Source: Bacteroidia bacterium (GTDB taxonomy: Bacteria; Bacteroidota; Bacteroidia; NS11-12g; UBA9320). From it: 64,000 nucleotides of DNA. The DNA lies in assembly GCA_029268695.1 (NCBI GenBank), contig JAQWNJ010000014.1, forward strand, positions 64,751 through 128,750, in the 5' to 3' direction. Position 1 is the first letter of the stretch. The number at the start of each line of letters is the position of its first letter. The notes under the pieces are model-generated. The model did no database searches, was not told the DNA's origin, and saw nothing but the letters and a program-made list of their open reading frames with translations. Made by a program: the position numbers and the translations under genes. Positions 1-52,213 of the stretch are shown one piece after another.

Positions 1-1953
1 GCAGTTGTTATAGCAAAACGCATTTCATATGGGCTTTCTAAATTAAGCCCAAGAACAACTATCCTACTTGGGGAACGAGAATTTCAGAAAGCAGCTTGTT
101 GCAACCTATCCGAAAGTTTTGAAAATGCCCCTGCTATCGACGTTAGTTTCAGTGATGCTGTCACAGGAACAAAACAGATTAAAATGCTTGGCCTTGATGG
201 TTTTTACACACTAATTGGTAGAGAGTATATGCCATCCGTCAGAACACTTAATTCATATTATGGTTTATCTCACATTCCCGCTGCATGGGTAGATGGGATT
301 CAAATAACTAAAGGTGCTGGTAGTGTCGTAAATGGCCACGAGAGTATTGCTGGTCAGATTAATATAGAGCTTAAAAAACCCTTTGGGTCTGAAAAATTCA
401 TTTTGGACCAATTTGCTAGTTCTGGTGGACGATTTGAAACGGATTTTATGTATACAAAGGATATTACAAAAAACATTGCATCCTCACTATTCATTCGATA
501 TGGAAATAGATCATTAGAATTCGATAATAATAACGATGGGTTTTTAGATATGCCAATAAGTGAAGATTTTAAGATTATGAATCGTTGGCAATTCTTTAAC
601 AAAAATGGTTTTGAAGGGACAGCAAATGCTAGCTACCACAACAGTCTTCAAAAAGCTGGACAATCAAATTCAAACTCAAATCCATATAAAATTGGCATTA
701 ATACTGAAGTTATCGATTTTTTTGCTAAGCTTGGGAAACCCTCGAAAAAAAATGAGTACAGTAGTTTTGGTTCTCAGTATAATTTCAATCACTCAGAAAT
801 GTCCAGCAATTATGGCTCTAACGAAAATCATAAAGAATATCTAGCACAAACAAATCAAGGGTATGTTAACCTTCTTTATGAAAGTATTATTGGGAATAGC
901 TTTCATCAATTTCAAACAGGTATTTCATTATTAATCGATGAAACTAAAGAAACCTTTGAGGGCTTTCAATTTGAAAGGACAGAAGCAGTCTCAGGACTAT
1001 TTTTTGAATACACATATAAACCAAAAGAAACATTCAGCTTAGTAGGTGGGATTAGATCAGACTTCAATACAATTTATGGTCTTTCTTTTACCCCAAGATT
1101 TCATGGGAAATATCGTTTTAATAAAGATAAAACATCGATAAGAATATCAACTGGTCTTGGAAGAAGAACAAGTAATCCGCTCGCTCAAAACCAAATGCTA
1201 TTTGCCTCAGGTAGAACTTTGGAATTTATAATGCGTGATTCTCAATTTGCCTATGGTTTGGAACAAGAATTAGCCTTAAATTCAGGGATAAGTTTTGAGC
1301 ATCAGTTTAAAATGAGGTACATGCCTGCAACAATTGGTCTTGATTTCTTCAATACTACGTTTAAAAATGAAGTAGTTGTGGACAGAGAAAATGCAGGGAA
1401 AGCCTATTTTTATAATGTAACAAATGGAACAATTGCAAATAGTTTTCAGACCCAACTAGACCTAAAGCCTGCTCGTAGGACTGAGATTCGCTTGGCATAC
1501 CGGATGTTTGATGTAAAGACCAAATATCAGAGTGAATCGAACACTTTATCCCTCATAACTAAACAAAAACCATTTATTTCTAAAGACCGAGCTTTTATTA
1601 ATATCACCCAGAGTACTCGAACTGATTGGAGATTTAATACTACACTAACTTGGTATGGGCCTCAGCGAATTGCTGGAGGTAAAGACACCATTTATTTCAC
1701 AAATAATTTAAAGCAAATTAAAGACAAATATTCACCTAACTTTTTTTTATTAAACGCTCAAATTAGTAAAACTTTTAAAAAAGAATTTGAGTTATATATT
1801 GGTGCAGAAAATATATTGAATTTTAAACAGCAAAACCCCATTCAAGATGCTATTCAACCATTTTCAGAAAATTTTGATGCTGGATTAGTTTGGGGACCTA
1901 TTTTTGGAAGAATAATCTATGGCGGTTTTCGATGGAGAATTAAATCAAAATGA
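1..1953 (+). CDS. TonB-dependent outer-membrane receptor, 5'-truncated by the window edge (plug and beta-barrel)
   Basis: The reading frame is open from nt 1 (AVVIAKRISYGLSKL...). It has a plug-like region (GIQITKGAGSVVNGHESIAGQINIELKKP), a long beta-rich barrel, and a C-terminal aromatic-rich end (GGFRWRIKSK). It is the first gene of the putative copper cluster. Confidence 0.8.
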   Translation, partial: AVVIAKRISYGLSKLSPRTTILLGEREFQKAACCNLSESFENAPAIDVSFSDAVTGTKQIKMLGLDGFYTLIGREYMPSVRTLNSYYGLSHIPAAWVDGIQITKGAGSVVNGHESIAGQINIELKKPFGSEKFILDQFASSGGRFETDFMYTKDITKNIASSLFIRYGNRSLEFDNNNDGFLDMPISEDFKIMNRWQFFNKNGFEGTANASYHNSLQKAGQSNSNSNPYKIGINTEVIDFFAKLGKPSKKNEYSSFGSQYNFNHSEMSSNYGSNENHKEYLAQTNQGYVNLLYESIIGNSFHQFQTGISLLIDETKETFEGFQFERTEAVSGLFFEYTYKPKETFSLVGGIRSDFNTIYGLSFTPRFHGKYRFNKDKTSIRISTGLGRRTSNPLAQNQMLFASGRTLEFIMRDSQFAYGLEQELALNSGISFEHQFKMRYMPATIGLDFFNTTFKNEVVVDRENAGKAYFYNVTNGTIANSFQTQLDLKPARRTEIRLAYRMFDVKTKYQSESNTLSLITKQKPFISKDRAFINITQSTRTDWRFNTTLTWYGPQRIAGGKDTIYFTNNLKQIKDKYSPNFFLLNAQISKTFKKEFELYIGAENILNFKQQNPIQDAIQPFSENFDAGLVWGPIFGRIIYGGFRWRIKSK

Positions 1954-2642
1954 ATAAAAAAGAAATTATAATTTCAGGTATTTCTTGCATGAGTTGTGTG
2001 AGCAAAATTGAAAAACAACTTTACACGAATACTTCATTAAATAAAATTACTATTCATAAAGATAGTGGGTCAACCCTTCTTGAAGGAAATAATATACCCG
2101 CCCAAATTGAAATTCAAAGCCTACTAACTGAAATCGGTGATTATAGTCTAACACCTCCCAAAAAAAGCTATTTTTTTATTCAATATAAACCCCTCATCCT
2201 TATTCTTTTTTACCTATCTATTGTCACTTTAAGCATTGAGTTAAGTTCGGGTATTTTCATATTGGAAACCTGGATGGCGAATTTCATGGCTGGATTCTTT
2301 CTCGTATTTTCATTCTTCAAGTTACTGGATATCCCTGCTTTTGCAAAAGCATATCAATCTTATGATATCATATCCTCTAGATTTGGGTTTTATGGATATA
2401 TCTACCCATTTATTGAATTAGGTTTAGGCCTCGCATATGTTTTCTTTTATGACAGTGACATAACAAATTTAACAACTGCTATTGTTATGTTTGTAAGTTT
2501 AGTAGGTGTGTCAAAGTCTGTCATCCAAAAATCAAAGATTCAATGTGCTTGTCTAGGAACAGTATTTAACCTTCCTATGAGTTACGTTACAATCATTGAA
2601 AATTTATTAATGTTATCTATGGCACTGTTTATGCTTTTATAA
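1950..2642 (+). CDS. Heavy-metal-associated (HMA) domain fused to a MauE/DoxX-like polytopic membrane domain
   Basis: The N-terminus has SGISCMSCVSKIEKQL, a GxxCxxC HMA ferredoxin-like motif. About four hydrophobic helices follow, and the C-terminus has a KIQCACLGT motif reminiscent of MauE. The start overlaps the receptor stop in an ATGA arrangement. Confidence 0.5.
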   Translation: MNKKEIIISGISCMSCVSKIEKQLYTNTSLNKITIHKDSGSTLLEGNNIPAQIEIQSLLTEIGDYSLTPPKKSYFFIQYKPLILILFYLSIVTLSIELSSGIFILETWMANFMAGFFLVFSFFKLLDIPAFAKAYQSYDIISSRFGFYGYIYPFIELGLGLAYVFFYDSDITNLTTAIVMFVSLVGVSKSVIQKSKIQCACLGTVFNLPMSYVTIIENLLMLSMALFMLL

Positions 2643-2651
2643 TATAGAAAT

Positions 2652-3398
2652 ATGAAACAAATTATCTTTATAATAATTGGAAGTTGGTTTTTATTATCAG
2701 TCATGGGTTGCAAGCCTGATCCCCCGATAAAAAATGAGGTTTCAACAATGGATATTACTATCAATCACGTGTTTGATGCTTCAGATTTTGAACTTAATCA
2801 AGAATATACATTACCTAGTGATGAACCTGTCAAATTCAGTCGATTCGCCTATTTATTATCTAACTTTTATCTGATTGATGAAAATGAGTTTAGAATAGCA
2901 TTAGACAAGCAATACCTTTACGTTGATATTAAATCTTCTAACTCTGATTTTAAACTAATAAGTATTCCTAAGGGAACCTACAAAGGAATCGGATTTTCTA
3001 TCGGTTTGGATTCCATTACAAATCACGGTAATCCAAATCAATACATCTCAGACCATCCTTTATCACCTATCAATAACTCGCTGCATTGGAGCTGGCAGGG
3101 CGGCTATATTTTTACAGCAATCGAAGGGAAAACCATAGCTAATAATGAAAGTTTTATTTTCCATTTAGCCGGCACACAGAATAAAGTTGATTTTGAATTG
3201 CCTTACAATTTTTCAAAGGAAGATGATGCAATCCATGCTGTTTTAAACTGTAACATTAAAGAAGTGTTTCAGAGCCCTGAAGTATATACCATAGAAATTG
3301 ATGGTCCTAGCACACATAATGTGGAAGATCCTGTCACACTAAAATTAATTAATAATATGAAAGATGTATTTTCTGTATCTTCTGTAGGAAGCCTGTAA
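2652..3398 (+). CDS. Secreted lipoprotein, MbnP-like (putative periplasmic copper-binding partner of the di-haem peroxidase)
   Basis: It has a lipoprotein signal (LLSVMGC), is about 250 aa, and contains a conserved Trp/His-rich segment (HWSWQGGYIF, HLAG). It lies immediately upstream of a di-haem CCP, as in mbnPH pairs. The assignment rests on context rather than on a recognised motif. Confidence 0.4.
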   Translation: MKQIIFIIIGSWFLLSVMGCKPDPPIKNEVSTMDITINHVFDASDFELNQEYTLPSDEPVKFSRFAYLLSNFYLIDENEFRIALDKQYLYVDIKSSNSDFKLISIPKGTYKGIGFSIGLDSITNHGNPNQYISDHPLSPINNSLHWSWQGGYIFTAIEGKTIANNESFIFHLAGTQNKVDFELPYNFSKEDDAIHAVLNCNIKEVFQSPEVYTIEIDGPSTHNVEDPVTLKLINNMKDVFSVSSVGSL

Positions 3399-3404
3399 AA
3401 CTTA

Positions 3405-4514
3405 ATGAAGAAGTTGTTCATCATATCATTTTTATTTGTCACTCTCCTATCATGTAAGGATGTAATCAACGAGATTCCACAAAATCCTTTTCAAATAACA
3501 CCATATTCATTCAGTTATAATACATCACTCTTACCTCCACCAAGAATACCCAGCGACAATCCTCTAACTGAAGAAGGAGTTCAATTGGGCAGAATGCTTT
3601 TTTATGACCCCATCTTAAGTTCAGATAGCTCACAAAGCTGTAATTCATGCCACAATCAAGCAAATGCATTTACAGACAATAATAATCAATTTAGTGTCGG
3701 GGTTAAAGGTACCGTCGGAAAACGCAATTCAATGGCTATTTTCAATTTAATGTGGCATATAGATGGATTCTTTTGGGATGGAAGTGCAGATATACTAAGA
3801 CATCAGGCTATCAAGCCAATAATTGATGAAACTGAGATGAACGAGAGCATTGACCATGTAATCATGAAATTAAATCGTTCACCGCTTTACAAAGAACACC
3901 TTCAAAAAGCATTTTTAGAATCCACATTTGACGAGGAGCTAATTGGAAAAGCATTAGAACAATTTATGTTATCTATTGTATCTGCAGATTCAAAGTTTGA
4001 TCGTGTGATGCTTGGATTAGAATCATTTACTGATGAAGAAAAAGTGGGTCAAGTAATATTTAATTCAGAATCTATACCACTCAAAGATGAGGTAGACCCT
4101 AACAATCCTCAAAATTTTGGTGCAGATTGCTTCCATTGTCATGGGAATAGTTTATTCATGCGTCGAGAATTTTTAACAAACGGACTATCAGACAATGGAG
4201 ATAAGGGCTTGGGAGATGTTACTGGAAATCCTAATGACAACTATAAATTCAAAACAACATCGCTTAGAAATATTGAGAAAACAGCACCGTACATGCATGA
4301 CGGAAGATTTAAAACGCTTGAGGAAGTAGTACAATTTTATCTTAGTGATATGAACGCATCAAGTGCTGTAGATCTCTCTGACTCTCCTAACTTACACGCA
4401 TTAAAAGATTCCGTTTATTTAAGCCCCGAGCACAAAAAGGCATTAATTTCCTTCCTAAAAACATTAACAGATGAAAGCCTATTAACCAACGAAAAATATA
4501 CATCACCATTTTAA
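3405..4514 (+). CDS. Di-haem cytochrome c peroxidase family protein (MbnH/MauG/CCP-like)
   Basis: There are two CxxCH haem motifs (CNSCH and CFHCH) spaced as in bacterial CCPs. CCP-like blocks are present (GKRNSMAIFNL, FWDGSA, APYMHDG). It has a signal peptide/lipobox (LLSC). Confidence 0.8.
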   Translation: MKKLFIISFLFVTLLSCKDVINEIPQNPFQITPYSFSYNTSLLPPPRIPSDNPLTEEGVQLGRMLFYDPILSSDSSQSCNSCHNQANAFTDNNNQFSVGVKGTVGKRNSMAIFNLMWHIDGFFWDGSADILRHQAIKPIIDETEMNESIDHVIMKLNRSPLYKEHLQKAFLESTFDEELIGKALEQFMLSIVSADSKFDRVMLGLESFTDEEKVGQVIFNSESIPLKDEVDPNNPQNFGADCFHCHGNSLFMRREFLTNGLSDNGDKGLGDVTGNPNDNYKFKTTSLRNIEKTAPYMHDGRFKTLEEVVQFYLSDMNASSAVDLSDSPNLHALKDSVYLSPEHKKALISFLKTLTDESLLTNEKYTSPF

Positions 4515-4533
4515 AATTTAATATATTTACACC

Positions 4534-4896
4534 ATGAAAAATACTATACTATTAGCATCGCTATTAATCTCAAGCGTTCTTTTTGCAAAAAATATAACTT
4601 CACGTATTGAAGTAAAAGCCAATTGTGAAATCTGCAAAGAAAAAATTGAAAAAACATTAGATATCCCCGGAATTTCTCATGCAGATTGGAACAAAGAGAC
4701 TAAGATTCTTACAGTTAGATATAACGAGAAAAAAATATCCCTAGATGATATCCATTCTATGATTAGCAATATTGGATACGCAACTAATAAAGTCAACGCT
4801 AATAGTGAGAGTCAAGCCCAACTTATGAAATGTTGTCAACCAAAAGAACCCGTCAAAAAATGTAACACAACTAAAAAGGGGTGTTGTACTAAGTAA
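4534..4896 (+). CDS. Secreted HMA-domain metallochaperone-like protein with a Cys-rich C-terminal tail
   Basis: It has a signal peptide and an HMA-like fold with a CEIC metal motif. The C-terminus is KCCQPKEPVKKCNTTKKGCCTK, which contains 6 Cys in 22 aa. Confidence 0.55.
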   Translation: MKNTILLASLLISSVLFAKNITSRIEVKANCEICKEKIEKTLDIPGISHADWNKETKILTVRYNEKKISLDDIHSMISNIGYATNKVNANSESQAQLMKCCQPKEPVKKCNTTKKGCCTK

Positions 4897-4929
4897 CAAT
4901 CAACTTTCATTAAGAAAATCAATCGATAC

Positions 4930-4966
4930 TTCTGATCTTGATCAGACGCAATTCTAATCTTTTTCT
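4930..4966 (+). terminator. Candidate hairpin plus T-tract after the HMA gene (perfect palindrome TCTGATC-TT-GATCAGA)
   Basis: The inverted repeat is at 4931-4946 and is followed by TCTTTTTC. The 2-nt loop is tight, so it may instead be a dimeric protein-binding site. Confidence 0.25.
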
Positions 4967-5051
4967 TGAACCCATTACTCTAAAAAAACACGATTAATAG
5001 TGCTACTTTACTTTATGAATAATCTTATTTTTGCACACAATAAAAATTAAA

Positions 5052-6032
5052 ATGTCAAGACAACTGCAAATACGTGAAGCACTTCGTGAAGCAATGAATG
5101 AGGAGATGCGAAAAGATGATTCTATTCTTCTCATGGGTGAGGAAGTTGCCGAGTATAATGGGGCATACAAAGTAAGTCAAGGAATGCTTGACGAATTTGG
5201 GGAGAAAAGAGTAATTGATACACCTATAGCTGAGTTAGGATTTGCTGGAATAGCAACTGGAGCTGCTACCAATGGGCTAAAGCCTATTGTAGAATTTATG
5301 ACATTTAACTTTAGTCTGGTTGCCATTGATCAAGTAATTAATGCTGCCGCTAAAATGAATAGTATGAGTGGTGGTCAATTTACATGCCCTATGGTATTTC
5401 GAGGACCTACCGGAAGTGCTGGACAACTAGGAGCTCAACATTCCCAAGCATTTGAGAACTGGTATGCTAATTGCCCTGGTCTAAAAGTTGCCGTATTGTC
5501 TAACGCATATAACGCAAAAGGCCTTCTAAAATCTGCTATTATTGATCCAGACCCAGTAATTTTTATGGAAAGTGAGCAGATGTACGGACTCAAGCATGAC
5601 GTTCCTGAGGATGAATATTATATTCCTCTTGGTCAAGCAAACATTCAAAAGACTGGTAGTGATGTGACCCTTGTTTCTTTCGGAAAGATGATGAGAGTTG
5701 CTGAAGAATCTGTAAAAATATTAACAGAAAAAGGAATTGATGTCGAACTTATTGATTTGCAATCTGTAAGACCAATCGACTACCAAACTATTGCAGAGAG
5801 TATTAAAAAGACCAATCGATGCGTAGTGCTCGAAGAAGCATGGCCTTTAGCATCTATCTCTTCTGAGATAAGCTACATGATGAGCCAAATGGTGTTCGAT
5901 CATCTTGACGCACCAATTAAGCGTGTAACTACACTCGATACACCACTGCCTTATGCATCTAGCCTAGTAGAAACTTGGTTACCTAATGCTAAGCGTGTAA
6001 TAGAAGCTGTCGAAGCAGTCATGTACCGATAA
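5052..6032 (+). CDS. pdhB: Pyruvate/2-oxoacid dehydrogenase E1 component beta subunit (transketolase-like)
   Basis: MSRQLQIREALREAMNEEMRKDDSILLMGEEVAEYNGAYKVS...GFAGIATGAA is the canonical E1-beta N-terminus. The start is chosen at the second in-frame ATG to match homolog N-termini. No E1-alpha gene is adjacent. Confidence 0.7.
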   Translation: MSRQLQIREALREAMNEEMRKDDSILLMGEEVAEYNGAYKVSQGMLDEFGEKRVIDTPIAELGFAGIATGAATNGLKPIVEFMTFNFSLVAIDQVINAAAKMNSMSGGQFTCPMVFRGPTGSAGQLGAQHSQAFENWYANCPGLKVAVLSNAYNAKGLLKSAIIDPDPVIFMESEQMYGLKHDVPEDEYYIPLGQANIQKTGSDVTLVSFGKMMRVAEESVKILTEKGIDVELIDLQSVRPIDYQTIAESIKKTNRCVVLEEAWPLASISSEISYMMSQMVFDHLDAPIKRVTTLDTPLPYASSLVETWLPNAKRVIEAVEAVMYR

Positions 6033-7182: not shown

Positions 7183-8217
7183 ATGAAGTATGCTTATTAT
7201 TTAATTTTTCTTTTATTAGTGACTTCTTGTAATGCCCAAATTGAATCTGACAATATGATAAATCAAGAAAAACCCAACACAACAGAATACAATAAACTAA
7301 CTGAAGCTGAAAAAAGAATTATTATTCGAAAAGGTACAGAGTACCCTAACACAGGAGAATATAATAAACACTATGAGGATGGAACATACATATGCAGACA
7401 ATGCAATCAACAACTTTATCAATCATCATCCAAATTCAACAGCAATTGTGGCTGGCCGAGTTTTGATGATGAAATAGACGGAGCTGTAAATCGAATCCTT
7501 GATGCTGACGGTCGAAGAACTGAGATTGTTTGCAGTAATTGTGCAGGACATCTTGGACACGTATTTATTGGAGAAAATTTTACAATAAAAAACACCCGTC
7601 ACTGTGTAAATAGTATTTCTATGCAATTCGTCCCAAAGGGTAAATCCATTCCAAAAATAATTACCTTAAGTGAAATTTCAGAATTAGATACCATAACATT
7701 TGGGGCAGGTTGCTTCTGGTGCGTTGAAGTACTTTTTCAGAAGCTTAAGGGTGTTTCTTATGTTGAAAGTGGCTATGCAGGTGGGAAAATAAAAAATCCT
7801 ACATACAAAATGGTTTGTCAGGGCAATACTGGTTCAGTTGAAGTCGCTCAGCTAATTTATGACCCAAAAATTATATCAGCTGAAACACTTATTGATATTT
7901 TCTTTCATGTCCATGATCCTACTACACTAAACAGACAAGGAAACGATGTTGGAGACCAATACCGTTCAGTTATCTTTTATCACAGTGCCCAACAAAAAGA
8001 AATTGCGAATAATGTACTTAATAGAATAGATTCTAGTAATTTATGGAACGAACCCATAGTCACCAAAGTAGAATCCATATATAACTACAGTAAAGCAGAA
8101 GATTATCATCAAAATTACTATAATAATAACTCATCAACTAATGGTTACTGTAATATGGTAATCAGACCAAAAGTAGCAAAGTTTAAAATTAAATATGCTG
8201 ATCTTATTAAGAAGTAA
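7183..8217 (+). CDS. msrAB: Bifunctional peptide-methionine sulfoxide reductase MsrB-MsrA with an N-terminal lipoprotein signal
   Basis: The MsrB zinc-ribbon and catalytic region are present (CRQCNQQLY...CGWPSF, RTEIVCSNCAGHLGHVF). The MsrA motif GAGCFWCVE follows. The N-terminus is LLLVTSC. Confidence 0.85.
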   Translation: MKYAYYLIFLLLVTSCNAQIESDNMINQEKPNTTEYNKLTEAEKRIIIRKGTEYPNTGEYNKHYEDGTYICRQCNQQLYQSSSKFNSNCGWPSFDDEIDGAVNRILDADGRRTEIVCSNCAGHLGHVFIGENFTIKNTRHCVNSISMQFVPKGKSIPKIITLSEISELDTITFGAGCFWCVEVLFQKLKGVSYVESGYAGGKIKNPTYKMVCQGNTGSVEVAQLIYDPKIISAETLIDIFFHVHDPTTLNRQGNDVGDQYRSVIFYHSAQQKEIANNVLNRIDSSNLWNEPIVTKVESIYNYSKAEDYHQNYYNNNSSTNGYCNMVIRPKVAKFKIKYADLIKK

Positions 8218-11505: not shown

Positions 11506-12531
11506 TTAAATATCAAATGCCTCGTCTACTATTGCTTTTTGCTCTCGAGTGTGAACAGCTGCATATCCAGTAGCTGGGCTAGCACTGCTTTTGCGAGTAA
11601 TCTCTTTGAAATTTCTAGCCCAATCATATCGTAAAACATGCATCCAGGCACCCATATTTTTAGGTTCTTCTTGCACCCAACAAAATTCAGCTTTGGGGTA
11701 TTTTTTGAAAAGTTTCTTAATTTGAGACTCTGGCATTGGGTAGAGTTGTTCTATTCTAACGATTGCCACATCTTTTCTTTTTTCAGATTCCTGTTTTTGC
11801 AAAAGGTCATAATAAATTTTACCACTGCATAGATTTACTCTTTTTACTTTCTTTAAATCTACATAGTTATCATCTATCACCTCTTGAAATGTTCCGTTAG
11901 TAAAATCCTTTGTTGTGCTTACACATTTTGGATGTCTCAACAAACTTTTAGGACTCATAATAGCCAATGGTTTCCTAAAGTCTCTATGAATTTGTCGTCT
12001 GAGAGCATGAAATAAATTTGCAGGGTTTGTGATATTCATCACCTGCATATTTGCAGATGCACATAATTGCAAATATCGCTCTAGACGAGCACTACTATGT
12101 TCTGGACCTTGCCCCTCATATCCGTGAGGCAAAAGCATCACCAATCCACTGTACCTTCCCCATTTAGTTTCCCCACTTGCGACAAATTGATCAATCATCA
12201 CTTGACAACCATTGGCAAAATCTCCAAACTGAGCTTCCCAAATTGTAAGCCCTTGTGGGTTGGTAATTGAATACCCATATTCAAAACCTAATACTGCATA
12301 CTCAGACAATAAGGAATTATGTATATCAAACGGAGCTTGATCAGAAGAAATATGATTTAATGGGATAAATTTTTCAATACCATCTTCCATATTAATCACT
12401 GAATGTCTGTGTGAGAATGTTCCTCGTTCGACATCTTGCCCACTCATGCGAACCGGATGACCTTCATTAAGCAACGAACCATAAGCCATTAATTCACCTA
12501 TGGCCCAATCATATACTCCTGACGATATCAA
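11506..12531 (-). CDS. sucA: 2-oxoglutarate dehydrogenase E1 component, C-terminal 341 codons, in the same frame as the upstream part
   Basis: The transketolase-like C-terminal half is present (GYSITNPQGLTIWEAQFGDFANGCQVMIDQF, LLPHGYEGQGPEHSSARLERYLQ). The frame is continuous with 12535..14226 except for a single TAA at 12535-12537. Confidence 0.75.
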   Translation of the reverse strand: MISSGVYDWAIGELMAYGSLLNEGHPVRMSGQDVERGTFSHRHSVINMEDGIEKFIPLNHISSDQAPFDIHNSLLSEYAVLGFEYGYSITNPQGLTIWEAQFGDFANGCQVMIDQFVASGETKWGRYSGLVMLLPHGYEGQGPEHSSARLERYLQLCASANMQVMNITNPANLFHALRRQIHRDFRKPLAIMSPKSLLRHPKCVSTTKDFTNGTFQEVIDDNYVDLKKVKRVNLCSGKIYYDLLQKQESEKRKDVAIVRIEQLYPMPESQIKKLFKKYPKAEFCWVQEEPKNMGAWMHVLRYDWARNFKEITRKSSASPATGYAAVHTREQKAIVDEAFDI

Positions 12532-12534
12532 TTC

Positions 12535-14226
12535 TTATCTATCGTTATAAAGTTTGGTTACTTTTTTAATTGGGGTATGATTATCTGGGATGGAAGTAAT
12601 TGCAATTGCGACCTTTTCTAAACTCGCTTTTGTAACAGAAGTTTTAAATGAACGCTCAAAATCTGCTTTCGTACCGGATTTAATAACGCTCCAAGTATTT
12701 TTGGGTAGATTGTTATTTTTTGGTTTTTTATCCGCACGAACATCTTCTAGGTCCTCTTGAAGCATCTTTTTAAATTCACGCTCCATCTCTTTAGCAAGAT
12801 TTGCTTCTATTGTTCCTTGTTCACTGAGTTTTTTTGCATAGATTTCTCTTGGATTAGGATGTTTAGCAATCGTTTTGTAAAGCATAGGTTGGGTGAATTT
12901 TGGTTCATCACCCTCATTATGACCATATTTACGATATCCTAAAATATCAATAAATACATCCTTATTAAAGGTTTGCCTGTATTCTAATGCAAGTTTTATT
13001 GTATATATAACTGCTTCAACATCATCACCATTAACATGGAAAACGGGACATTTGGTAGTCTTAGCTACATCCGTACAGTAAATTGATGTTCTAGCGTCAG
13101 TATAGTTAGTCGTAAAACCAATTTGATTATTGGTAACTAGATGAAGTGTACCTCCAACATTATAACCGTCCAATCCAGCCATTTGAATAACCTCATAAAC
13201 GATACCCTGCCCAGCAATAGCGGCATCACCATGGATTAGTATGGGAGTGATTTTTGACAAATCTTTAGCATAACGTTCGTCCAATTTAGCTTTAGTCATT
13301 CCCTGTACAACAGGATTAACCGCCTCCAAATGACTTGGGTTAGGACATAGGTTGAGCTTAACCTTCTTGCCTAAACTGGTAGTTACAGAACTGGTATATC
13401 CCAAGTGGTATTTGACATCACCCTCAAATACGGAATCTTCATAGGCTTTACCTTCAAATTCATTGAAAATTTCAGCATAACTTTTTTTCATAATATTAGC
13501 TAAAACATTCAATCTCCCACGGTGAGCCATCCCGATAACAAACTCTTCTACACCTTGCCCTGAACCTAATTCAATTGCAGCATCTAAAGCGGGTATTAAC
13601 GACTCCAATCCCTCTAATGAAAATCGTTTTTGTCCAACATATTTAGTATGCAAAAAATTCTCAAATGCAACTGCATGATTAAGCTTTTCAAGGGTTAGTT
13701 TTTTCTGCTCAATTGTGAAGTCTGGTGTATTCTTTCTCTGCTCCATTCTACTTTGAAGCCACTCTAACTGCTTTGGGTTTGTCATATACATATACTCAAC
13801 CCCGATACTACCACAATAGGTCTGCTCACAATGAGCAATAATATCCTTTAGTTTTGCAGGACCAATCCCTAAAGCTACACCCGCATTAAATTTTTTATCT
13901 AAGTCTGATTTAGTAAGTCCAAAGTTCTCAATGGATAAATCTGGCGAATATTTTCGACGAGCTCTTACAGGATTTGTTTTCGTAAAAAGATGCCCTCTCG
14001 AACGATAACCCTTATTTATGAGATTCAAGACATTAATTTCTTTCATCATATCCTCAGATACGACTTCACTCGTTCCATTCAACCCTAAATCACCATAGGC
14101 CAGATCAAACCCTTCAAAAAATCGTTGCCAACTTTCGTCTAATGAAAATTTATCTGTTTTGTATTGTTCGTATAGATGTTCAATAGAATCAACATCTGCA
14201 TTGCTGAGGTATGAATGATTTAACAT
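12535..14226 (-). CDS. sucA: 2-oxoglutarate dehydrogenase E1 component, N-terminal 563 codons, ending at an in-frame TAA
   Basis: The N-terminus (SYLSNADVDSIEHLYEQYK) and the ThDP-binding region (GMAHRGRLNVLANI...HGDAAIAGQG) are present. Confidence 0.8.
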   Translation of the reverse strand: MLNHSYLSNADVDSIEHLYEQYKTDKFSLDESWQRFFEGFDLAYGDLGLNGTSEVVSEDMMKEINVLNLINKGYRSRGHLFTKTNPVRARRKYSPDLSIENFGLTKSDLDKKFNAGVALGIGPAKLKDIIAHCEQTYCGSIGVEYMYMTNPKQLEWLQSRMEQRKNTPDFTIEQKKLTLEKLNHAVAFENFLHTKYVGQKRFSLEGLESLIPALDAAIELGSGQGVEEFVIGMAHRGRLNVLANIMKKSYAEIFNEFEGKAYEDSVFEGDVKYHLGYTSSVTTSLGKKVKLNLCPNPSHLEAVNPVVQGMTKAKLDERYAKDLSKITPILIHGDAAIAGQGIVYEVIQMAGLDGYNVGGTLHLVTNNQIGFTTNYTDARTSIYCTDVAKTTKCPVFHVNGDDVEAVIYTIKLALEYRQTFNKDVFIDILGYRKYGHNEGDEPKFTQPMLYKTIAKHPNPREIYAKKLSEQGTIEANLAKEMEREFKKMLQEDLEDVRADKKPKNNNLPKNTWSVIKSGTKADFERSFKTSVTKASLEKVAIAITSIPDNHTPIKKVTKLYNDR

Positions 14227-17776: not shown

Positions 17777-18751
17777 ATGAGACTAGTTACCTCAGATGAT
17801 ATCATTGATGTGTTGGCCAAAGGCAAACAACGTGGTTTGCGATTTTTAATATCTAAGCTCACTTTGAACAAGCTGAACCGAACCAAAAGTGCATTTGATA
17901 AATCTTCAATCAGCCACTCTAACTGGTGGATTATTCCAGAGGTAAAAGAACGTTGGAACAAACTCATAACTGGTAACCTAAAAGTAACCTACGAAACATT
18001 TATGATGAATGGTTATTTAAAAAATAAAAAAAATCTTCGATTACTATCTATTGGATCAGGATCATGCAGCCACGAATTAGAGCTGGCATCATATCCTAAT
18101 TTTGAGAAAATAGTCTGTGTTGACATTGCGGATAATCGTCTCAAAGAAGCAGAAAAAATAGCTCACTCAAAAGGCCTTCAAAACATTTCCTTTATATGTG
18201 CCAATGCTCTTGAATATTCATTTGAGTCAAATTTTGACATTGTATTTTTTCATTCATCTCTTCATCACTTTAACCATATCTCAAATCTGATACCCCACAA
18301 AATAATTCCTCTGTTAAAATCAGATGGCCATTTAATTATCAATGAGTATGTTGGTCCTACTCGGATTCAACACCCCAAACACCAAGTACAAGCTATCAAT
18401 CGAGGATTAAAACTTATCCCTAATAAATTCCGAAAACGCTTTAAGACGGGATGGATAAAGAGACTATATCATGGATCTGGGCTTATTCGTATGATACTAG
18501 CTGATCCATCCGAATGCATAGATTCATCAAGTATACTGCCTACTATTCATACCCATTTTAAAACGATTGATGAACGACCATACGGAGGAAATATACTCAT
18601 GCATGTTTTCAAAGACATCTCACATCATTTTCTAGATATGGATTCTGAAAGAAAATATATTCTTAATTCATTATTTGATTTTGAAGATGAATATCTTCAA
18701 AATCAACCTTCAGATTTTGTGTTTGGGATTTATCAATTAAAAAAGTCTTAG
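17777..18751 (+). CDS. Class I SAM-dependent methyltransferase
   Basis: Motif I-like LLSIGSGSCSHELELA and a post-I acidic region CVDIADNRL are present. No DNA-methyltransferase target-recognition motifs were seen. Confidence 0.6.
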   Translation: MRLVTSDDIIDVLAKGKQRGLRFLISKLTLNKLNRTKSAFDKSSISHSNWWIIPEVKERWNKLITGNLKVTYETFMMNGYLKNKKNLRLLSIGSGSCSHELELASYPNFEKIVCVDIADNRLKEAEKIAHSKGLQNISFICANALEYSFESNFDIVFFHSSLHHFNHISNLIPHKIIPLLKSDGHLIINEYVGPTRIQHPKHQVQAINRGLKLIPNKFRKRFKTGWIKRLYHGSGLIRMILADPSECIDSSSILPTIHTHFKTIDERPYGGNILMHVFKDISHHFLDMDSERKYILNSLFDFEDEYLQNQPSDFVFGIYQLKKS

Positions 18752-20004
18752 AATTTTTTTAACAACTCTCCAAACTCCCATATATCCATGTATGAATTGT
18801 AGAAAGGGACAGGAGCAAGTCTTATTACATTCGGTTCTCGCCAATCGGCTATTACGTCGTTAGCCGTTAAATAATCAAATAATGATTTCCCACTTGCATT
18901 GGTAAGCATACTTAATTGACAACCACGATCTTCAGGTGTAATGATCTCGAAGGCTAGCTTGGAGTTAGATGCCTGTGCATCTATGACCACCTGCTCTAAA
19001 AAACGATTTAATTTTTGCCCTTTAGTAGCTAAAGCATCCATCCCTACTTTATCAAATATATCCAAGGAAGCCTTGTGAGCAGCCATTGTAATAACGGGAG
19101 CATTACTCAACTGCCATCCTGCAGCACCTGGTTCAGGGATGTATCCACGTTTCATTTGAAAACGCTCACTTTCTTTGTGTCCCCACCAACCTGCAAATCG
19201 AGGCATATCTGGATTATGCCCATGTTTTTCATGGATAAATACACCACTCACTCCACCAGGACCAGAATTCATATACTTATAGGTACACCAGGCCGCAAAA
19301 TCTACCTTCCAGTCGTGTAGTTGTAGTTTGACATTACCTGCTGCATGAGCACAATCAAAACCAGCAATAGCTCCTACTTTATGTGCTGCTGCAGTTAGTG
19401 CTTTTATATCAAAATATTGTCCTGTATAATATTGTACACCACTAAAAAATAATAATGCCAATTCATCACCCGCTTCTTCAATGGCTTGCACAACGTCTTC
19501 TGTTCGAAGATGATGTTCTCCTTGCCTTGGCTCAAGCTCGATTACAGCATCATCATATTCATGCCCATGATGTTTCACTTGACTTTCAATGACATACATA
19601 TCACTTGGAAACGCTCCTGCTTCCATAATAATCTTATATCGTTTTGAAGACGGTCTATAAAAACTAACCAATAAAAGATGAAGATTGACTGTCAGATTGT
19701 TCATCACAATTACCTCATCTTTTTTTGCTCCTACAACATTAGCTTCTTTTTCAAAAAAATGATGATAGCTAAACCAAGGATTCTTTCCATGAAAATGCCC
19801 CTCAACACCAAAATTTTTCCAATCATCTAACTCTTGCTGAATATAGCTTTGGACAGATTTGGGTTGAAGCCCTAAAGAATTTCCAGTGAAGTATAGCTGT
19901 TCATTGCGGGTTTTGCCTGAGGGAATATAAAAATGGTTTCTATACTCTCTTAATGGGTCGTTATTATCCAAATCTTCGGCTATTTGTTTACTGGTAGTCA
20001 GCAT
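18748..20004 (-). CDS. kynU: Kynureninase (PLP-dependent)
   Basis: The 418-aa aminotransferase class V fold matches kynureninases throughout (LYFTGNSLGLQP..., CTYKYMNSGPGG Lys-PLP region). Confidence 0.8.
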   Translation of the reverse strand: MLTTSKQIAEDLDNNDPLREYRNHFYIPSGKTRNEQLYFTGNSLGLQPKSVQSYIQQELDDWKNFGVEGHFHGKNPWFSYHHFFEKEANVVGAKKDEVIVMNNLTVNLHLLLVSFYRPSSKRYKIIMEAGAFPSDMYVIESQVKHHGHEYDDAVIELEPRQGEHHLRTEDVVQAIEEAGDELALLFFSGVQYYTGQYFDIKALTAAAHKVGAIAGFDCAHAAGNVKLQLHDWKVDFAAWCTYKYMNSGPGGVSGVFIHEKHGHNPDMPRFAGWWGHKESERFQMKRGYIPEPGAAGWQLSNAPVITMAAHKASLDIFDKVGMDALATKGQKLNRFLEQVVIDAQASNSKLAFEIITPEDRGCQLSMLTNASGKSLFDYLTANDVIADWREPNVIRLAPVPFYNSYMDIWEFGELLKKF

Positions 20005-21201: not shown

Positions 21202-21303
21202 GATCGATTACAAATTTATTTAGAATTTGGATAATGCATTCATCGATTAATTATTCATCAAGTATAAGCATTGCATGAAGTTAAATATGATAATTTTGTG
21301 CTA

Positions 21304-22215
21304 ATGAATTTAAACAAACTTTTAGTATTTTTCTTTTTGTTGATTATTTTTAATGGTTGTTCAACAACTAAAAATGAAAATAAACCATTAACTATTGTCA
21401 CAACAACAGGAATATTGGGGGATTGTGTCGCTCAAATTATTGATGGTCAAGCTGAGGTGATTTCTATTATGGGAGCTGGAGTAGATCCACACTTATACAA
21501 AGCATCGCAAGGTGATATATCAAAACTATCTGACGCTGACATCATCGTTTATAATGGCTTGCATTTGGAAGGAAAGATGGCACAAATGCTCGAAAATTTC
21601 TCAAAATCAAAACCTGTTTTTGCGATTGGTAATTACATAAAAAAATCAGATTTAAAACGAGTAGATAATACATCTGATCTTGTTGATCCTCATGTTTGGT
21701 TTAGCCCTGATTTATGGCTTGAAGGTCTTAATGGTATCGCTAAAGAGTTGGAAAAACAAAATGGCCTTAATCGTATTTTAGAAAATTACCAAGACTATGC
21801 AACCAAAATTCAATCCACACAAATTAGGCTTCAGCAGCTTTTGGATGAAGGACTTGATTCAAGTCAACGAATCTTAATAACAAGTCATGATGCATTTGAA
21901 TATTTTGGAGATGCATTTAAATTTAAAGTGAGAGGTCTTCAAGGGATTTCGACCACTGCAGAATATGGCACTAAAGACATAAAAGATCTTACAGATTTTA
22001 TAATAGATAACAAGATTAAATCTGTATTTGTAGAAACAAGTGTTCCAAATAAAAATCTAGAAGCAGTAGTCGCAAGTGCTCAAGCAAGAGATTATAGCAT
22101 CCGTATTGGTGGGACACTGTATAGTGATGCTTTGGGAGAAAAAAACACCCCTGCTGGAACGTATGAAGGAATGTTAATTTCTAATGTTCAAACTATAATC
22201 AAAGGACTTAAATAA
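21304..22215 (+). CDS. Metal (Zn/Mn/Fe) ABC transporter substrate-binding lipoprotein, TroA/ZnuA cluster-9 family
   Basis: It has a lipoprotein signal (LIIFNGC) and ZnuA/TroA blocks (DPHLYKAS, DPHVWFSP, ITSHDAFEYFGDAF). A TTG at 21271 is an alternative start. Confidence 0.8.
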   Translation: MNLNKLLVFFFLLIIFNGCSTTKNENKPLTIVTTTGILGDCVAQIIDGQAEVISIMGAGVDPHLYKASQGDISKLSDADIIVYNGLHLEGKMAQMLENFSKSKPVFAIGNYIKKSDLKRVDNTSDLVDPHVWFSPDLWLEGLNGIAKELEKQNGLNRILENYQDYATKIQSTQIRLQQLLDEGLDSSQRILITSHDAFEYFGDAFKFKVRGLQGISTTAEYGTKDIKDLTDFIIDNKIKSVFVETSVPNKNLEAVVASAQARDYSIRIGGTLYSDALGEKNTPAGTYEGMLISNVQTIIKGLK

Positions 22216-22991
22216 TGGCTATCCCAATTATAGAGGCTCATAATCTAACTGTTCTTTATGGAAGAAAACCTGCCATTTGGAATATTGATTTTAAACTCCC
22301 TGAAGGTCAAGTAATTGGAATAATGGGTCCTAACGGAAGTGGCAAAAGTACACTACTTAAATCAATTATGGGCGTTGTTACACCCACTACGGGGTATACT
22401 AAAGTTTATGACCAGGAATTAAATCAAGTGCGTCATAAAGTTAGTTATGTGCCACAACGACAAGAAATAGACTGGGATTTCCCAGCAAGTGTTTGGGATA
22501 TTGTTTCAATGGGTCGGTTTCATGTTCGAGGATTGTTCAAAAGGCTTACAAGCGAGGATAATGACATCATTCAGGAAAGTCTGGAAAAAGTGAATATGCT
22601 TGGCTTTGCTAAAAGACAAATCAGCCAATTATCGGTAGGGCAACAACAACGGGTATTTCTAGCTAGAGCCATAGCTCAACAAGGGGAACTATTTTTAATG
22701 GACGAGCCATTTGCTGGGGTAGATATCGCAACTGAAGAAATGATTGTTGATCTTTTAAAAGAAATGAAAGGTCAGGGCAAAACACTCGTTATCGTTCACC
22801 ACGATTTACACACTGCCCAATCGTATTTTGATCATCTAGTTTTGATGAATACACGACTAGTTGCATGTGGTAAAACATCTGATGTTTTCACGGATCAGAT
22901 TTTAACAGATACGTATGGTGGCAAATTAACTACGATATCAAAAATTAGTCAAGAGTTAGAAAATAAGGAATTCCCAATTAGACATCAATGA
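22215..22991 (+). CDS. Metal ABC transporter ATP-binding protein
   Basis: It has a Walker A (GPNGSGKST), the signature LSVGQQQRV, and a Walker B (LFLMDEPFAGVD). It overlaps the neighbouring genes. Confidence 0.85.
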   Translation: MAIPIIEAHNLTVLYGRKPAIWNIDFKLPEGQVIGIMGPNGSGKSTLLKSIMGVVTPTTGYTKVYDQELNQVRHKVSYVPQRQEIDWDFPASVWDIVSMGRFHVRGLFKRLTSEDNDIIQESLEKVNMLGFAKRQISQLSVGQQQRVFLARAIAQQGELFLMDEPFAGVDIATEEMIVDLLKEMKGQGKTLVIVHHDLHTAQSYFDHLVLMNTRLVACGKTSDVFTDQILTDTYGGKLTTISKISQELENKEFPIRHQ

Positions 22992-24268
22992 GTTTTTGGC
23001 AAAATATACCTAGTTATTTCTCAAGTGAATATTATACCTTTTGGGTGGTTAGTATTGGTGCTGGAATAATTTGTTTTGGAGCTGGCATTGTGGGTACATT
23101 TTCTTATCTCAGAAAACGAGCTTTACTAGGTGACGTTATTTCTCATGCAGTTTTGCCAGGTGTTGCTATTTCATTCATGCTTACTGGAGTTAAAAACCCT
23201 CTTTATTTTTTAATAGGAGCTACAACCTCTGGGATTCTATCTATTTGGCTTGTAGATTATATTCATAGTAAGTCGAAATTAAAACCAGATACTATTCTGG
23301 CTTTGACATTAAGTGTTTTCTTCGGAATCGGCATTGTGCTTCTGACCAAAATACAACACAGTGGCAATGCTGCACAAAGTGGATTGGATAGCTTTTTATT
23401 TGGGAAGGCTGCAAGCATGACACTACAAGATGTAATAACATTCTCAGTTATTGCACTAATCAATACTTTATGTATCGCAGTTTTTTTAAGAGCTTTTAGT
23501 ATGATTAGTTTTGACGAAGAATATGCGAAAAGTTTAGGTTTTAATATTAAAATTATCAAATCATTTTTAGCCCTTCTAACCGTTATTACGGTTGCTATTG
23601 GTATACAATCCGTAGGTATTGTGCTTATGGCAGCCTTATTAATTACTCCTGCAAGTGGTGCCCGATTTCTTACAAACTCTATAAAAAAGATGCTAATTTA
23701 TGCAGGTATCTTCGCATTATTGAGTGGGTTCACAGGTGTAATTATCAGCTCTAGCGGAACAGCAATGCCAACTGGACCTTGGATTGTCGTTGTATTATCA
23801 TCCTTCACAATATTTGCTATCTTCTTTGGAAAAGAAAAAGGAGTTATTGCTCGAATGAGAATTAGGAGATCAAACAATCTTAAAATCAATAATGAAAACA
23901 CACTTAAGAAATTATACAAGTTATCAGAAGAAAGGAAAGAAAGTATTCATGTAGATCAATTATCTGACATTCAATCCTCCGCCCAATTAAAAACAACATT
24001 AAAACGATTAGAAAAAAAGCAAATACTTAGTCAAGTTAAAGGAACCATTATACTTAATGAGAAAGGCAAAATTGCAGCACGAGAAGTAATTCGTAAACAT
24101 CGCCTTTGGGAAATCTACTTGTCTAAATATTTTCAACTGGATAAGGATCATCTGCATGATGATGCCGAAGGGATTGAACATGTCATTACACCCGAAATTG
24201 AAAAACATCTTATAACATTATTAGATAGACCCGAAAAAGATCCACACCAAAGTGAGATCCCATACTAA
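22988..24268 (+). CDS. ABC-3 metal transporter permease with a C-terminal fused DtxR/MntR-family metalloregulator domain
   Basis: About 290 aa of ABC-3 permease with 8-9 TM helices is followed by a DtxR-like HTH and metal/dimerisation domain (LKKLYKLSEE..., RKHRLWEIYL, HDDAEGIEHVITPEIEKHL, DPHQSEIPY). Confidence 0.8.
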   Translation: MSFWQNIPSYFSSEYYTFWVVSIGAGIICFGAGIVGTFSYLRKRALLGDVISHAVLPGVAISFMLTGVKNPLYFLIGATTSGILSIWLVDYIHSKSKLKPDTILALTLSVFFGIGIVLLTKIQHSGNAAQSGLDSFLFGKAASMTLQDVITFSVIALINTLCIAVFLRAFSMISFDEEYAKSLGFNIKIIKSFLALLTVITVAIGIQSVGIVLMAALLITPASGARFLTNSIKKMLIYAGIFALLSGFTGVIISSSGTAMPTGPWIVVVLSSFTIFAIFFGKEKGVIARMRIRRSNNLKINNENTLKKLYKLSEERKESIHVDQLSDIQSSAQLKTTLKRLEKKQILSQVKGTIILNEKGKIAAREVIRKHRLWEIYLSKYFQLDKDHLHDDAEGIEHVITPEIEKHLITLLDRPEKDPHQSEIPY

Positions 24269-25128: not shown

Positions 25129-25204
25129 AATCCTGCGATTCTTCCATTTATTTTCTTTGTGATATCTATCATTGTATAGGAAATAACAATCTACATAGTA
25201 AAAA

Positions 25205-52030: not shown

Positions 52031-52072
52031 TTTATTGAATCAATTTAAAATAATTTATGTTGATTTGCAGTG

Positions 52073-52175
52073 CTTATAAAGAAAGACTGAGGGATTAGGC
52101 CCATAGACGTCTTGGCAACCTGAGTATCAAAATATCAAGGTGCTACATCCTATCCCACAATTGGGAGAAGATAAG
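52073..52175 (+). promoter_or_regulatory. SAM-I (S-box) riboswitch in the metH 5' leader
   Basis: CTTATAAAGAAAGACTGAGGGATTAGGCCCATAGACGTCTTGGCAACC...AGGTGCTACATCC...AGAAGATAAG matches the SAM-I consensus (CUUAUCAAGAG-GGC-GAGGGA-GGCCC-AUGAA-CC-GGCAACC / GGUGC-AAUUCC / AGAUAAG). P1 is CTTAT/ATAAG, P3 is AGAC/GTCT, and P4 is ACCTGA/TCAAGGT. Confidence 0.6.
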
Positions 52176-52213
52176 TGTTCTATAAACCTAATTGTAAACT
52201 CTCATTAATAATT

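Follow-up and report, generated by a model that had tools for sequence, protein, structure and literature searches.

How marine Bacteroidia acquire the copper that they need for haem-copper oxidases and other cuproenzymes is poorly understood, as is copper uptake in non-methanotrophic bacteria in general, and this question is raised by a run of genes at the beginning (positions 1-4896) of a 64,000-nucleotide stretch of contig JAQWNJ010000014.1 from a Bacteroidia bacterium, which in its full length is called the window below. An earlier interpretation made from the letters only (hereafter, the sequence-only reading) had described these genes as a five-gene cluster for copper acquisition, with a TonB-dependent transporter, two HMA-domain proteins and a pair resembling MbnP and MbnH (MbnPH). 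Our analysis supports copper acquisition as the favoured explanation: positions 1-4896 are the 3' five-sixths of a six-gene operon of marine planktonic Bacteroidia, and this operon probably imports copper, a statement in which we infer both the metal and the direction of transport.

Gene order and its conservation

The five co-directional open reading frames (ORFs) described in the sequence-only reading were all present on the + strand:

1..1953, + strand: TonB-dependent outer-membrane transporter, truncated at its 5' end, with a match to the Plug domain; frame 1 is open from base 1
1950..2642, + strand: HMA-MauE fusion, a membrane protein (Pfam MauE 47 bits, HMA 21 bits)
2652..3398, + strand: MbnP-like lipoprotein (Pfam MbnP 116 bits), with the lipobox Cys (Cys20) at nt 2709-2711
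3405..4514, + strand: MbnH-like dihaem lipoprotein of the MauG/bCcP superfamily (CCP_MauG 169 bits)
4534..4896, + strand: periplasmic HMA protein with a Cys-rich tail (Pfam HMA 35 bits) and a cleavable signal peptide

The spacings at the junctions are -4, 9, 6 and 19 nt, the first one being a 4-nt ATGA overlap. A dihaem protein with two CxxCH motifs does lie directly 3' of a lipoprotein, in the mbnP-mbnH arrangement, and the two proteins, whose genes are separated by the 6-nt gap, match the MbnP and MbnH families. Likewise, the pair is flanked by two distinct HMA proteins, and both of their domains are real, with the CxxC motif appearing as CMSC in the second gene and as CEIC in the fifth. The extent of the cluster had to be revised, as its five genes are genuine but the unit consists of six, the first of which, an ORF of the DUF8199 family, lies outside the window. 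As deduced from relatives, base 1 is preceded by this ORF, by the promoter and by the ~105 codons with which the transporter begins. The downstream neighbours are housekeeping genes (pyruvate dehydrogenase E1 beta, rhodanese and MsrB-MsrA), and therefore the unit ends at 4896.

When one genome per species was scanned with the MbnP-like protein, 79 loci were obtained, six of them from Bacteroidia bins. The gene order DUF8199, TonB-dependent transporter, HMA-MauE, MbnP, CCP_MauG, HMA was kept in L001-L004, L080, L082 and L084, and an identical order minus HMA-MauE was found in L005 and L006. The order thus recurs in at least nine Bacteroidia loci (L001-L006, L080, L082 and L084) at protein identities from 93% to ~50%, and therefore the arrangement is more than a product of chance. 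The 93% identical relative is L004, which supplies the missing upstream portion, whereas L080, L082 and L084 are distant contigs (~50% identity) in which the six genes were recognized by precomputed Pfam labels, the small ORF being labelled DUF8199. The flanks are also common to L004, L082 and L084, with genes for a biotin-lipoyl protein and a DUF3078 protein upstream and the E1 beta gene downstream, which points to vertical inheritance. Apparently, therefore, the operon is vertically inherited in marine planktonic Bacteroidia; the host organisms are open-ocean planktonic members of this class, represented by Tara and other marine metagenome bins, and no counterpart of the cluster was found in the E. 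coli genomes searched.

A variant detected at L086:1461-4822 contains HMA-MauE, HMA and CC-plug TonB transporter genes (the latter encoding a protein 34% identical to that of the window), with MbnP and MbnH missing. As MbnPH is missing in L086 and HMA-MauE is missing in L005 and L006, the system is modular. Its constant core is formed by the transporter and the HMA protein, HMA-MauE and MbnPH being each dispensable in some lineages, and the same patterns indicate that the presence of HMA-MauE goes with that of the transporter and HMA protein, not with that of MbnPH.

The MbnP-like lipoprotein and its dihaem partner

The sequence-only reading would fall if the product of 2652..3398 bore no similarity to MbnP. 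This similarity was found in the Pfam MbnP match (E 2e-33), in the fold, which is that of 7L6G, and in an invariant WxW motif. The Pfam model (PF20243) scored 116.1 bits, compared to a gathering threshold of 27, and covered residues 32-208. The hidden Markov model searches that had been proposed for the MbnP and MbnH/CCP families were positive with the Pfam models PF20243 and PF03150, whereas the cut-offs of the NCBIfam models TIGR04052 and TIGR04039 were missed. Judging from these scores, the MbnP-like protein is a remote branch and not an equivalog of TIGR04052.

An AlphaFold model of the protein (pLDDT 87.5, built on 27 homologues) was compared by Foldseek with 350,000 solved chains, and six chains of 7L6G were the only matches at E <= 0.001 (best 1.8e-8, probability 1.0, TM 0.56). 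In parallel, the single sequence gave no match among solved structures, and profile searches revealed a weak 7L6G match near the WxW motif, with E values of 2.7 and 0.059. Because these sequence searches against solved structures were weak or empty, membership in MbnP rests on Pfam and the predicted fold.

The motif itself was located as follows:

3087..3095, + strand: WxW motif, W146-S-W148, aligned with the WNW of 7L6G; W146 is the predicted precursor of kynurenine

Both W146 and W148 were invariant in the Bacteroidia sequences (27/27) and also when Verrucomicrobiota and Planctomycetota were included (30/30). In this 30-sequence multi-phylum alignment H171 and H222 were invariant as well, and H145 nearly so. 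According to Manesis et al. in 2021, kynurenine reportedly forms from the first Trp of the MbnP WxW motif, which we take to correspond to W146 here. The conserved WxW motif of MbnP contains Trp174, and it is the conversion of this residue to kynurenine by MbnH that is required for copper binding (PMC11951088).

The family is large: its cluster representatives numbered 5234 when E <= 0.001 was required, and 152 at the stricter limit of E <= 1e-30. An MbnH-type partner was adjacent or overlapping in all the Bacteroidia loci, and in the Verrucomicrobiota relatives it was part of a fused ORF. Such fusions of MbnP-like and MbnH-like proteins, in ORFs of ~580-620 aa, were observed in L007-L079, from Verrucomicrobiota, Planctomycetota and related bins (e.g. 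L008:9920-11665; P0294, P0297, P0299 and P0308), and no transporter or HMA genes were detected by phmmer near them. In the literature on DUF8199, HYC_CC_PP and PF20243, nothing was found beyond a methanobactin mining paper of 2013.

Regarding the location of the MbnP-like protein, its lipobox reads VMGC. At least two Asp or Glu were present among the five residues that follow the lipobox Cys in 64/70 family members, although the protein of the window has one acidic residue only (KPDPP). Acidic residues at these positions resemble the lipoprotein export signal of Bacteroidota. It is thus plausible, by analogy with MopE and CorA, that the MbnP-like protein captures copper as a surface-exposed or secreted protein, and a further hint of an extracellular role is the MbnP paralogue of L080, which carries a type IX secretion tail. 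That paralogue belongs to a gene group at L080:399-4294, directly 5' of the operon, in which it is accompanied by a second DUF8199 gene and two more CCP_MauG genes; its type IX secretion domain, at the C-terminal end, is Por_Secre_tail.

The partner protein encoded by 3405..4514 is a predicted lipoprotein, as deduced from its lipobox LLSC, and matched CCP_MauG (PF03150) with 169 bits. TIGR04039 was its top-scoring family, with a full-length match (48-369), although the 217.6 bits obtained did not reach the cut-off of 362.85. Among solved structures, its closest relative was MbnH 6E1C (5e-44), ahead of the best bCcP (5e-32) and the best MauG (1.8e-25). The residues expected to hold its haems are the following:

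3639..3653, + strand: first haem motif, CNSCH, aa 79-83, invariant in 74/74 sequences
4128..4142, + strand: second haem motif, CFHCH, aa 242-246, invariant in 73/74
4338..4340, + strand: Tyr312, predicted distal ligand of the six-coordinate haem, invariant in 73/73

Tyr312 sits two residues past the end of the alignment with 1NML, at chain position 275, which in bacterial peroxidases (Met275) is presumably occupied by the Met ligand of the six-coordinate haem. A Tyr as distal haem ligand is a MauG-type feature. W117 and W124 were also invariant among homologues. From these sequence features, the dihaem protein is an enzyme of the MauG/MbnH type, predicted to modify a protein substrate and not to detoxify peroxide.

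Transporter, HMA proteins, upstream ORF and other features of the window

By comparison with its L004 homologue, the window begins at residue 106 of a transporter of 755 aa. The full-length protein of L004 (755 aa) has a signal peptide followed by CarbopepD_reg_2 and Plug domains, and in the fragment of the window the Plug domain scored 24.8 bits, compared to a cut-off of 23.9. The L080 and L086 homologues are annotated with the barrel family PF00593, the barrel being not directly detected in the window fragment, and similarity to solved transporters was limited to the plug. One feature stands out in this domain:

97..102, + strand: CC, a pair of vicinal Cys within the plug motif KAACCNLSESFE, invariant in 10/10 sequences

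The motif with its CC pair was present in all ten cluster-type transporters, including that of L086 in spite of its low identity, and its sequence suggests a putative metal site. Vicinal CC pairs were also detected in DUF8199 and in the tail of the periplasmic HMA protein, and their recurrence in these three proteins fits a thiophilic cargo.

The periplasmic HMA protein encoded by the last gene scored 35.4 bits with PF00403 (cut-off 24.8), with CEIC present, and has two Cys-containing regions:

4624-4635, + strand: CxxC (CEIC) motif of the HMA domain, C31 and C34
4831-4893, + strand: Cys-rich, Lys-rich tail CCQPKEPVKKCNTTKKGCC at the C-terminal end

Both cysteines of the former and five of the latter (C31, C34, C100, C101, C110, C117 and C118) were invariant in 8/8 homologues, so that the tail follows a CC-x8-C-x6-CC pattern. 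The closest solved relatives of the protein were copper-binding proteins, namely the domains of B. subtilis CopA and CopZ, and weak matches to MerP/MerTP were obtained for this HMA domain and for that of HMA-MauE.

The HMA-MauE protein is formed by an N-terminal HMA domain (aa 1-68) and five transmembrane helices, the last four of which make up the MauE domain (PF07291, 47 bits); the HMA match (21 bits) was under its cut-off (24.8). In an AlphaFold model (pLDDT 82.7), a complete HMA fold (beta-alpha-beta-beta-alpha-beta) leads into five long helices, and the loop that precedes the last of them, which is disordered and modelled with low confidence, contains a CXC motif. The fused HMA domain superposed on domains of CopZ, CopP and ATP7B with TM values of 0.8-0.87, and no relative of the membrane part was found among solved structures. 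This architecture was found in more than 7800 homologues, and its main motifs are the following:

1986..1997, + strand: CxxC (CMSC) of the fused HMA domain, C16 being 99% conserved
2274..2288, + strand: MxxxM (M109-ANF-M113) at the predicted periplasmic end of the second transmembrane helix, both Met being 100% conserved in 117 homologues
2544..2552, + strand: MauE active-site CXC (C199-A-C201), 100% conserved, in a Lys/Arg-rich loop predicted to be cytoplasmic

In the same 117 sequences, conservation of at least 99% was observed for C16, M109, M113, K124, E156, M180, C199, C201, M210, E217, M221 and M224, and it was of 100% for C199, C201, K124 and E156. Canonical MauE has four helices and replaces DsbB; its active site, a CXC with a small X, is carried by the periplasmic loop that joins helix 3 to helix 4, and a conserved Lys in helix 1 and a conserved Glu in helix 2 lie near a predicted quinone site (bioRxiv 10.64898/2026.03.05.709764). 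The orientation of the fusion protein appears to be the opposite. No signal peptide was found in any of the 117 sequences, and the mean number of Lys plus Arg was 2.2 in the N-terminal flank, 3.0 in loop 2 and 2.6 in the CXC loop, compared to 0.02, 0 and 0.2 in the segments of the other side. Thus, a cytoplasmic location is predicted for the HMA domain as well as for the CXC loop, an arrangement inverted with respect to the described MauE. A canonical four-helix MauE was sought for comparison of its charges in 1.3 Mb of the relatives' loci, and none was found; because of this, the predicted inversion rests on the charge bias of the HMA-MauE family itself and on the description given in the preprint.

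A cytoplasmic partner for the MauE domain is also supported by split and alternative versions of the fusion. In a Bernardetia plasmid, a double-HMA protein without signal peptide adjoins a separate gene for a five-helix MauE, and in Proteobacteria the N-terminal domain of this MauE type is a signal-less glutaredoxin-like domain. The two Met of the MxxxM motif are missing in the glutaredoxin-MauE relatives, and the Met residues of the helices, those of MxxxM included, are specific to the HMA-fused Bacteroidia branch. MauE proteins of this type, with five helices and a KCAC loop, are encoded on plasmids at L087:6300-7375, L088:5578-6345, L089:5665-6396 and L090:5608-6396. Next to some MauE-domain relatives are genes for a multicopper oxidase, a copper protein of the four-helix-bundle kind and DUF305, and next to others are those for CueR, a P-type copper ATPase and an HMA protein; both of these settings are copper islands. 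One glutaredoxin-MauE relative is divergent from a MerR-family regulator. These neighbours link the MauE-type membrane domain to copper independently of MbnP. By analogy with the transfer of mercury from MerT to NmerA, a possible role for HMA-MauE is to conduct Cu(I) to the thiols of the CXC and of the HMA domain; another is that of a quinone-linked redox module acting on its fused CxxC domain or on copper.

The ORF that heads the operon was identified in relatives:

L004:6573-6938, L002:2368-2733, L003:3628-3993 and L005:7201-7581 (strand not stated): DUF8199 ORF, heading the operon
L080:4355-4744, L082:4520-4897 and L084:4224-4577 (strand not stated): DUF8199 ORF, heading the operon

It encodes a Cys-rich protein of ~120 aa (121 aa in L004, where it lies 51 nt upstream of the transporter) with a weak HYC_CC_PP match. 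The DUF8199 proteins of the operon begin with a hydrophobic stretch resembling a signal and contain more cysteines besides an invariant CC; their middle part varies, and the extreme C-terminus is conserved in the form PPxQxxLQVFLC-stop, which is HPSIFQVFLC in the clade of the window. This ORF may be a further metal-binding component or, by analogy, a regulatory leader. A scan of positions 1-5200 for sigma-70 promoters and terminators detected no excess over shuffles, and in the short upstream spacer of L002-L004 only a Bacteroidota-type TAATTTTG box was held in common, with no palindrome. A T_TTT_TTA run at the end of the DUF8199 ORF was considered as a -1 frameshift site and was ruled out, as the -1 frame, followed by eye, stops before the start of the transporter, and AT-rich codons are expected at 33% guanine plus cytosine.

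Outside the cluster, several features of the window deserve mention. A second metal-uptake cluster was observed at 21271-28086, with genes for a ZnuA-type binding protein, an ATP-binding cassette (ABC) ATPase, two ABC-3 permeases, a TonB-dependent transporter of 628 aa and an ORF of 332 aa; the first permease has a C-terminal Fe_dep_repr_C domain, which is a metal-binding domain of the DtxR type. An in-frame TAA at 12535-12537 (- strand) splits the gene of the 2-oxoglutarate dehydrogenase E1 into two ORFs (12535-14226 and 11506-12531), and as the codon in L004 (93%-related) is AAA (Lys), it is attributable to a sequencing or assembly error or to a recent nonsense mutation. A SAM riboswitch (70.5 bits) at 52071-52177 lies directly upstream of the gene for a B12-dependent methionine synthase of 897 aa without the N-terminal homocysteine-binding domain, and a separate ORF of 339 aa in L004 (L004:2858-3877) resembles, by eye, a homocysteine S-methyltransferase domain. 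A lipoprotein-type MsrB-MsrA fusion (methionine sulfoxide reductase) is encoded at 7183-8217, 2.3 kb downstream of the copper cluster with its many Met and Cys residues, and a kynureninase-like gene is located at 18748-20004; the proximity of these two genes to the cluster is probably coincidental.

Probable copper import, rival explanations and known systems

How could these proteins act together? In the route that we propose, the MbnH-like dihaem enzyme would oxidise W146 of the MbnP-like lipoprotein to kynurenine, creating a Cu(I) site as in the Methylosinus pair, and the MbnP-like protein, either periplasmic or exposed at the surface of the cell, would capture copper. The CC-plug TonB-dependent transporter would carry the metal through the outer membrane, and Cu(I) would be chaperoned by the periplasmic HMA protein, which has a CxxC and a CC...C...CC tail. 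The inner-membrane step would correspond to HMA-MauE, for which one option is a Met-lined path (MxxxM, M180, M221/M224) leading to the cytoplasm-facing CXC loop and from there to the cytoplasmic HMA domain, in the manner of MerT and NmerA; alternatively, it could be a quinone-linked thiol or copper redox module. The chain of copper sites along this route would be based on sulphur and kynurenine. Operons with MbnPH and a TonB-dependent transporter have been tied to copper in the literature (e.g. PMC11951088, PMC9426467).

A bolder version of this route makes of the inverted HMA-MauE the missing inner-membrane step of TonB-dependent copper import, either with Cu(I) moving along the invariant Met residues or through a quinone-coupled copper/thiol redox reaction, and of DUF8199 the Bacteroidota counterpart of the copper-sensing leader CruR, so that the operon would hold a complete path from seawater to cytoplasm; we put this forward as a speculation that is more likely to fail than to hold.

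Several observations weigh against copper import as read here. With TIGR04052, an equivalog model named 'MbnP family copper-binding protein', the MbnP-like protein scored 46.6 bits against a cut-off of 140, with residues 101-176 only being matched. Its identity to 7L6G is only ~15%, and it has no equivalent of the four-Cys motif for which 7L6G was deposited as a 'four-Cys motif protein', the lipobox Cys20 being the sole invariant Cys in both alignments. The OprC/NosA model (TIGR01778) gave no match at E <= 0.1 either with the transporter fragment of the window or with the full-length L004 protein, and the cluster encodes no regulator. HMA domains bind also Zn, Cd, Co and Hg. Moreover, the plasmid relatives of HMA-MauE sit in islands for copper resistance, not uptake, and from the catalytic signature that it retains, a redox rather than a transport role of HMA-MauE is quite possible.

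The main rival explanation is that the cluster buffers or detoxifies periplasmic copper, with MbnP and the Cys-rich HMA protein sequestering Cu(I) and HMA-MauE maintaining the redox state of their thiols or shuttling copper towards handling in the cytoplasm, as proposed for CopCD-type components of resistance operons. The plasmid resistance islands in which MauE-domain relatives are found, which include multicopper oxidase, CueR, P-type ATPase and resistance-nodulation-division (RND) efflux genes, speak in its favour, as does the fact that HMA chaperones are typical of resistance systems and that MauE is a thiol-disulfide enzyme. However, the cluster is centred on a TonB-dependent transporter, an energised importer and its most constant partner, and none of the nine loci has an efflux pump, a multicopper oxidase or a copper-sensing regulator within the cluster or beside it. 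The open-ocean planktonic lifestyle of the hosts also counts against detoxification, as free copper is extremely scarce in the open ocean. In our opinion, this explanation is unlikely.

Copper import was also weighed against the import of another thiophilic metal (Zn, Cd, Co, Ni or Hg) or of an organic metal complex, such as a foreign chalkophore, that would be taken up by the transporter and stripped by MbnPH. The HMA and CC/CxC motifs are not copper-specific, both HMA domains have weak matches to MerP/MerTP, and the pairing of one glutaredoxin-MauE relative with a MerR-family regulator could be read in the same sense; by contrast, among solved structures the HMA protein comes closest to copper domains, the annotated contexts of the MauE relatives are copper-specific, and the dedicated Znu-type system found elsewhere in the window indicates that the cluster is not the zinc/manganese route of the organism. 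With respect to a complex, MbnPH has been speculated to aid the release of copper from methanobactin in methanotrophs, but methanobactin-type biosynthesis genes were not found nearby in the loci examined. The only MbnP characterised so far binds Cu(I) (PMC11951088). A substrate other than copper seems, on this balance, quite improbable.

Finally, the maturation of a Trp-containing catalytic protein by MauG-like and MauE-like proteins, as suggested by the presence of homologues of both in one operon, like in mau clusters, and by the MauE catalytic signature (CXC, Lys, Glu) being retained, is rejected as very improbable because HMA-MauE and MbnPH occur independently (L005/L006 and L086), while in addition the predicted location of the CXC loop is the cytoplasm and that of MbnP and MbnH the periplasm, the dihaem enzyme is nearer to MbnH than to MauG, genes like those of MauA, MauB and MauD are absent, and the transporter and two HMA domains would have no place in such a system.

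Copper import thus being the favoured explanation, the operon represents a compact candidate pathway, with a named component for each compartment, that ties three uncharacterised families (CC-plug transporter, HMA-MauE and DUF8199) to copper. It also bears on the role of the widespread MbnPH pair outside methanobactin operons. For MauE, which has been proposed as the second most common disulfide-forming enzyme of bacteria, it draws attention to a large sub-branch, fused to signal-less HMA or glutaredoxin domains, that appears to be inverted across the membrane.

When compared to known systems, HMA-MauE shares with MauE the Pfam domain, the CXC and two conserved residues, a Lys in the first helix of this domain and a Glu in the second. 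It differs from MauE in having one more helix at the N-terminal side, an HMA domain fused to it without a signal peptide, CACLG instead of CGCFG, and six invariant Met in its helices, as well as in the location of the CXC loop, predicted to be cytoplasmic whereas the active site of the described MauE is periplasmic. In the MerT/MerP/NmerA system, Hg is passed inward by an HMA protein of the periplasm, a small membrane protein whose Cys pair faces the cytoplasm and an HMA domain that acts as acceptor in the cytoplasm. The likeness here is limited to the logic of the relay, an analogy that implies no membership, as there is no homology in the membrane part, the reductase is absent and the weak MerP/MerTP matches of the HMA domains are the sole link.

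OprC and NosA are, like the transporter of the cluster, TonB-dependent outer-membrane proteins, and they have a sulphur-containing metal site, which in OprC is a CxxxM-HxM motif. In the Bacteroidia the candidate site is the vicinal CC in the plug, and there is no detectable similarity to the models of these proteins.

With respect to the upstream ORF, CruR (DUF2946) is a small exported protein with a Cys motif, whose ORF heads copper-repressed operons of TonB transporters in Proteobacteria, such as bp2923-bfrG-bp2921 of Bordetella, and CruR-led operons can include MbnPH-like genes (PMC9426467). DUF8199 resembles it in position and layout only, that is, in being the first of the operon, in its ~120 aa, in its signal-like N-terminus and Cys motif and in its conserved C-terminal end containing Pro. 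The motifs are different (CC or DCC and PPxQxxLQVFLC-stop in DUF8199, compared to CXXC and an arrest motif, RAPP, at the C-terminus in CruR), the spacer is of ~50 nt instead of 162 nt, and no DUF2946 match was obtained for the upstream ORF of the relatives, so there is no sequence relationship to CruR.

MopE of Methylococcus capsulatus and CorA of Methylomicrobium album are copper-repressed surface or secreted proteins that scavenge copper; their copper site contains kynurenine, and a dihaem peroxidase is found next to them (PMC11951088). Their fold and sequence family are unlike those of the Bacteroidia MbnP-like protein, but the acidic segment after the lipobox and the paralogue with a type IX secretion tail in L080 suggest a comparable extracellular role, in which we infer surface exposure.

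A close parallel is found in Methylosinus trichosporium OB3b (MbnP/MbnH and an MbnT-like transporter; 7L6G and 6E1C), in which a Trp-rich WxW protein of the same fold and a MauG-like dihaem enzyme are encoded beside a TonB transporter, and the chemistry expected is also the same, from Trp to kynurenine to a Cu(I) site. The association of MbnPH with a transporter is therefore already in the literature; new here are the CC-plug transporter, the apparently inward-facing HMA-MauE, the Cys-tailed HMA chaperone and the DUF8199 leader, none of which was found described in the searchable literature. Compared to the Methylosinus system, the MbnP-like and MbnH-like proteins of Bacteroidia are both lipoproteins, the loci are without methanobactin genes and without the MbnI/MbnR sigma/anti-sigma pair, and the transporter belongs to a Bacteroidota-type family, with CarbopepD_reg_2 and a CC plug. 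To the shared arrangement, the Bacteroidia operon adds HMA-MauE, the Cys-tailed HMA protein and DUF8199.

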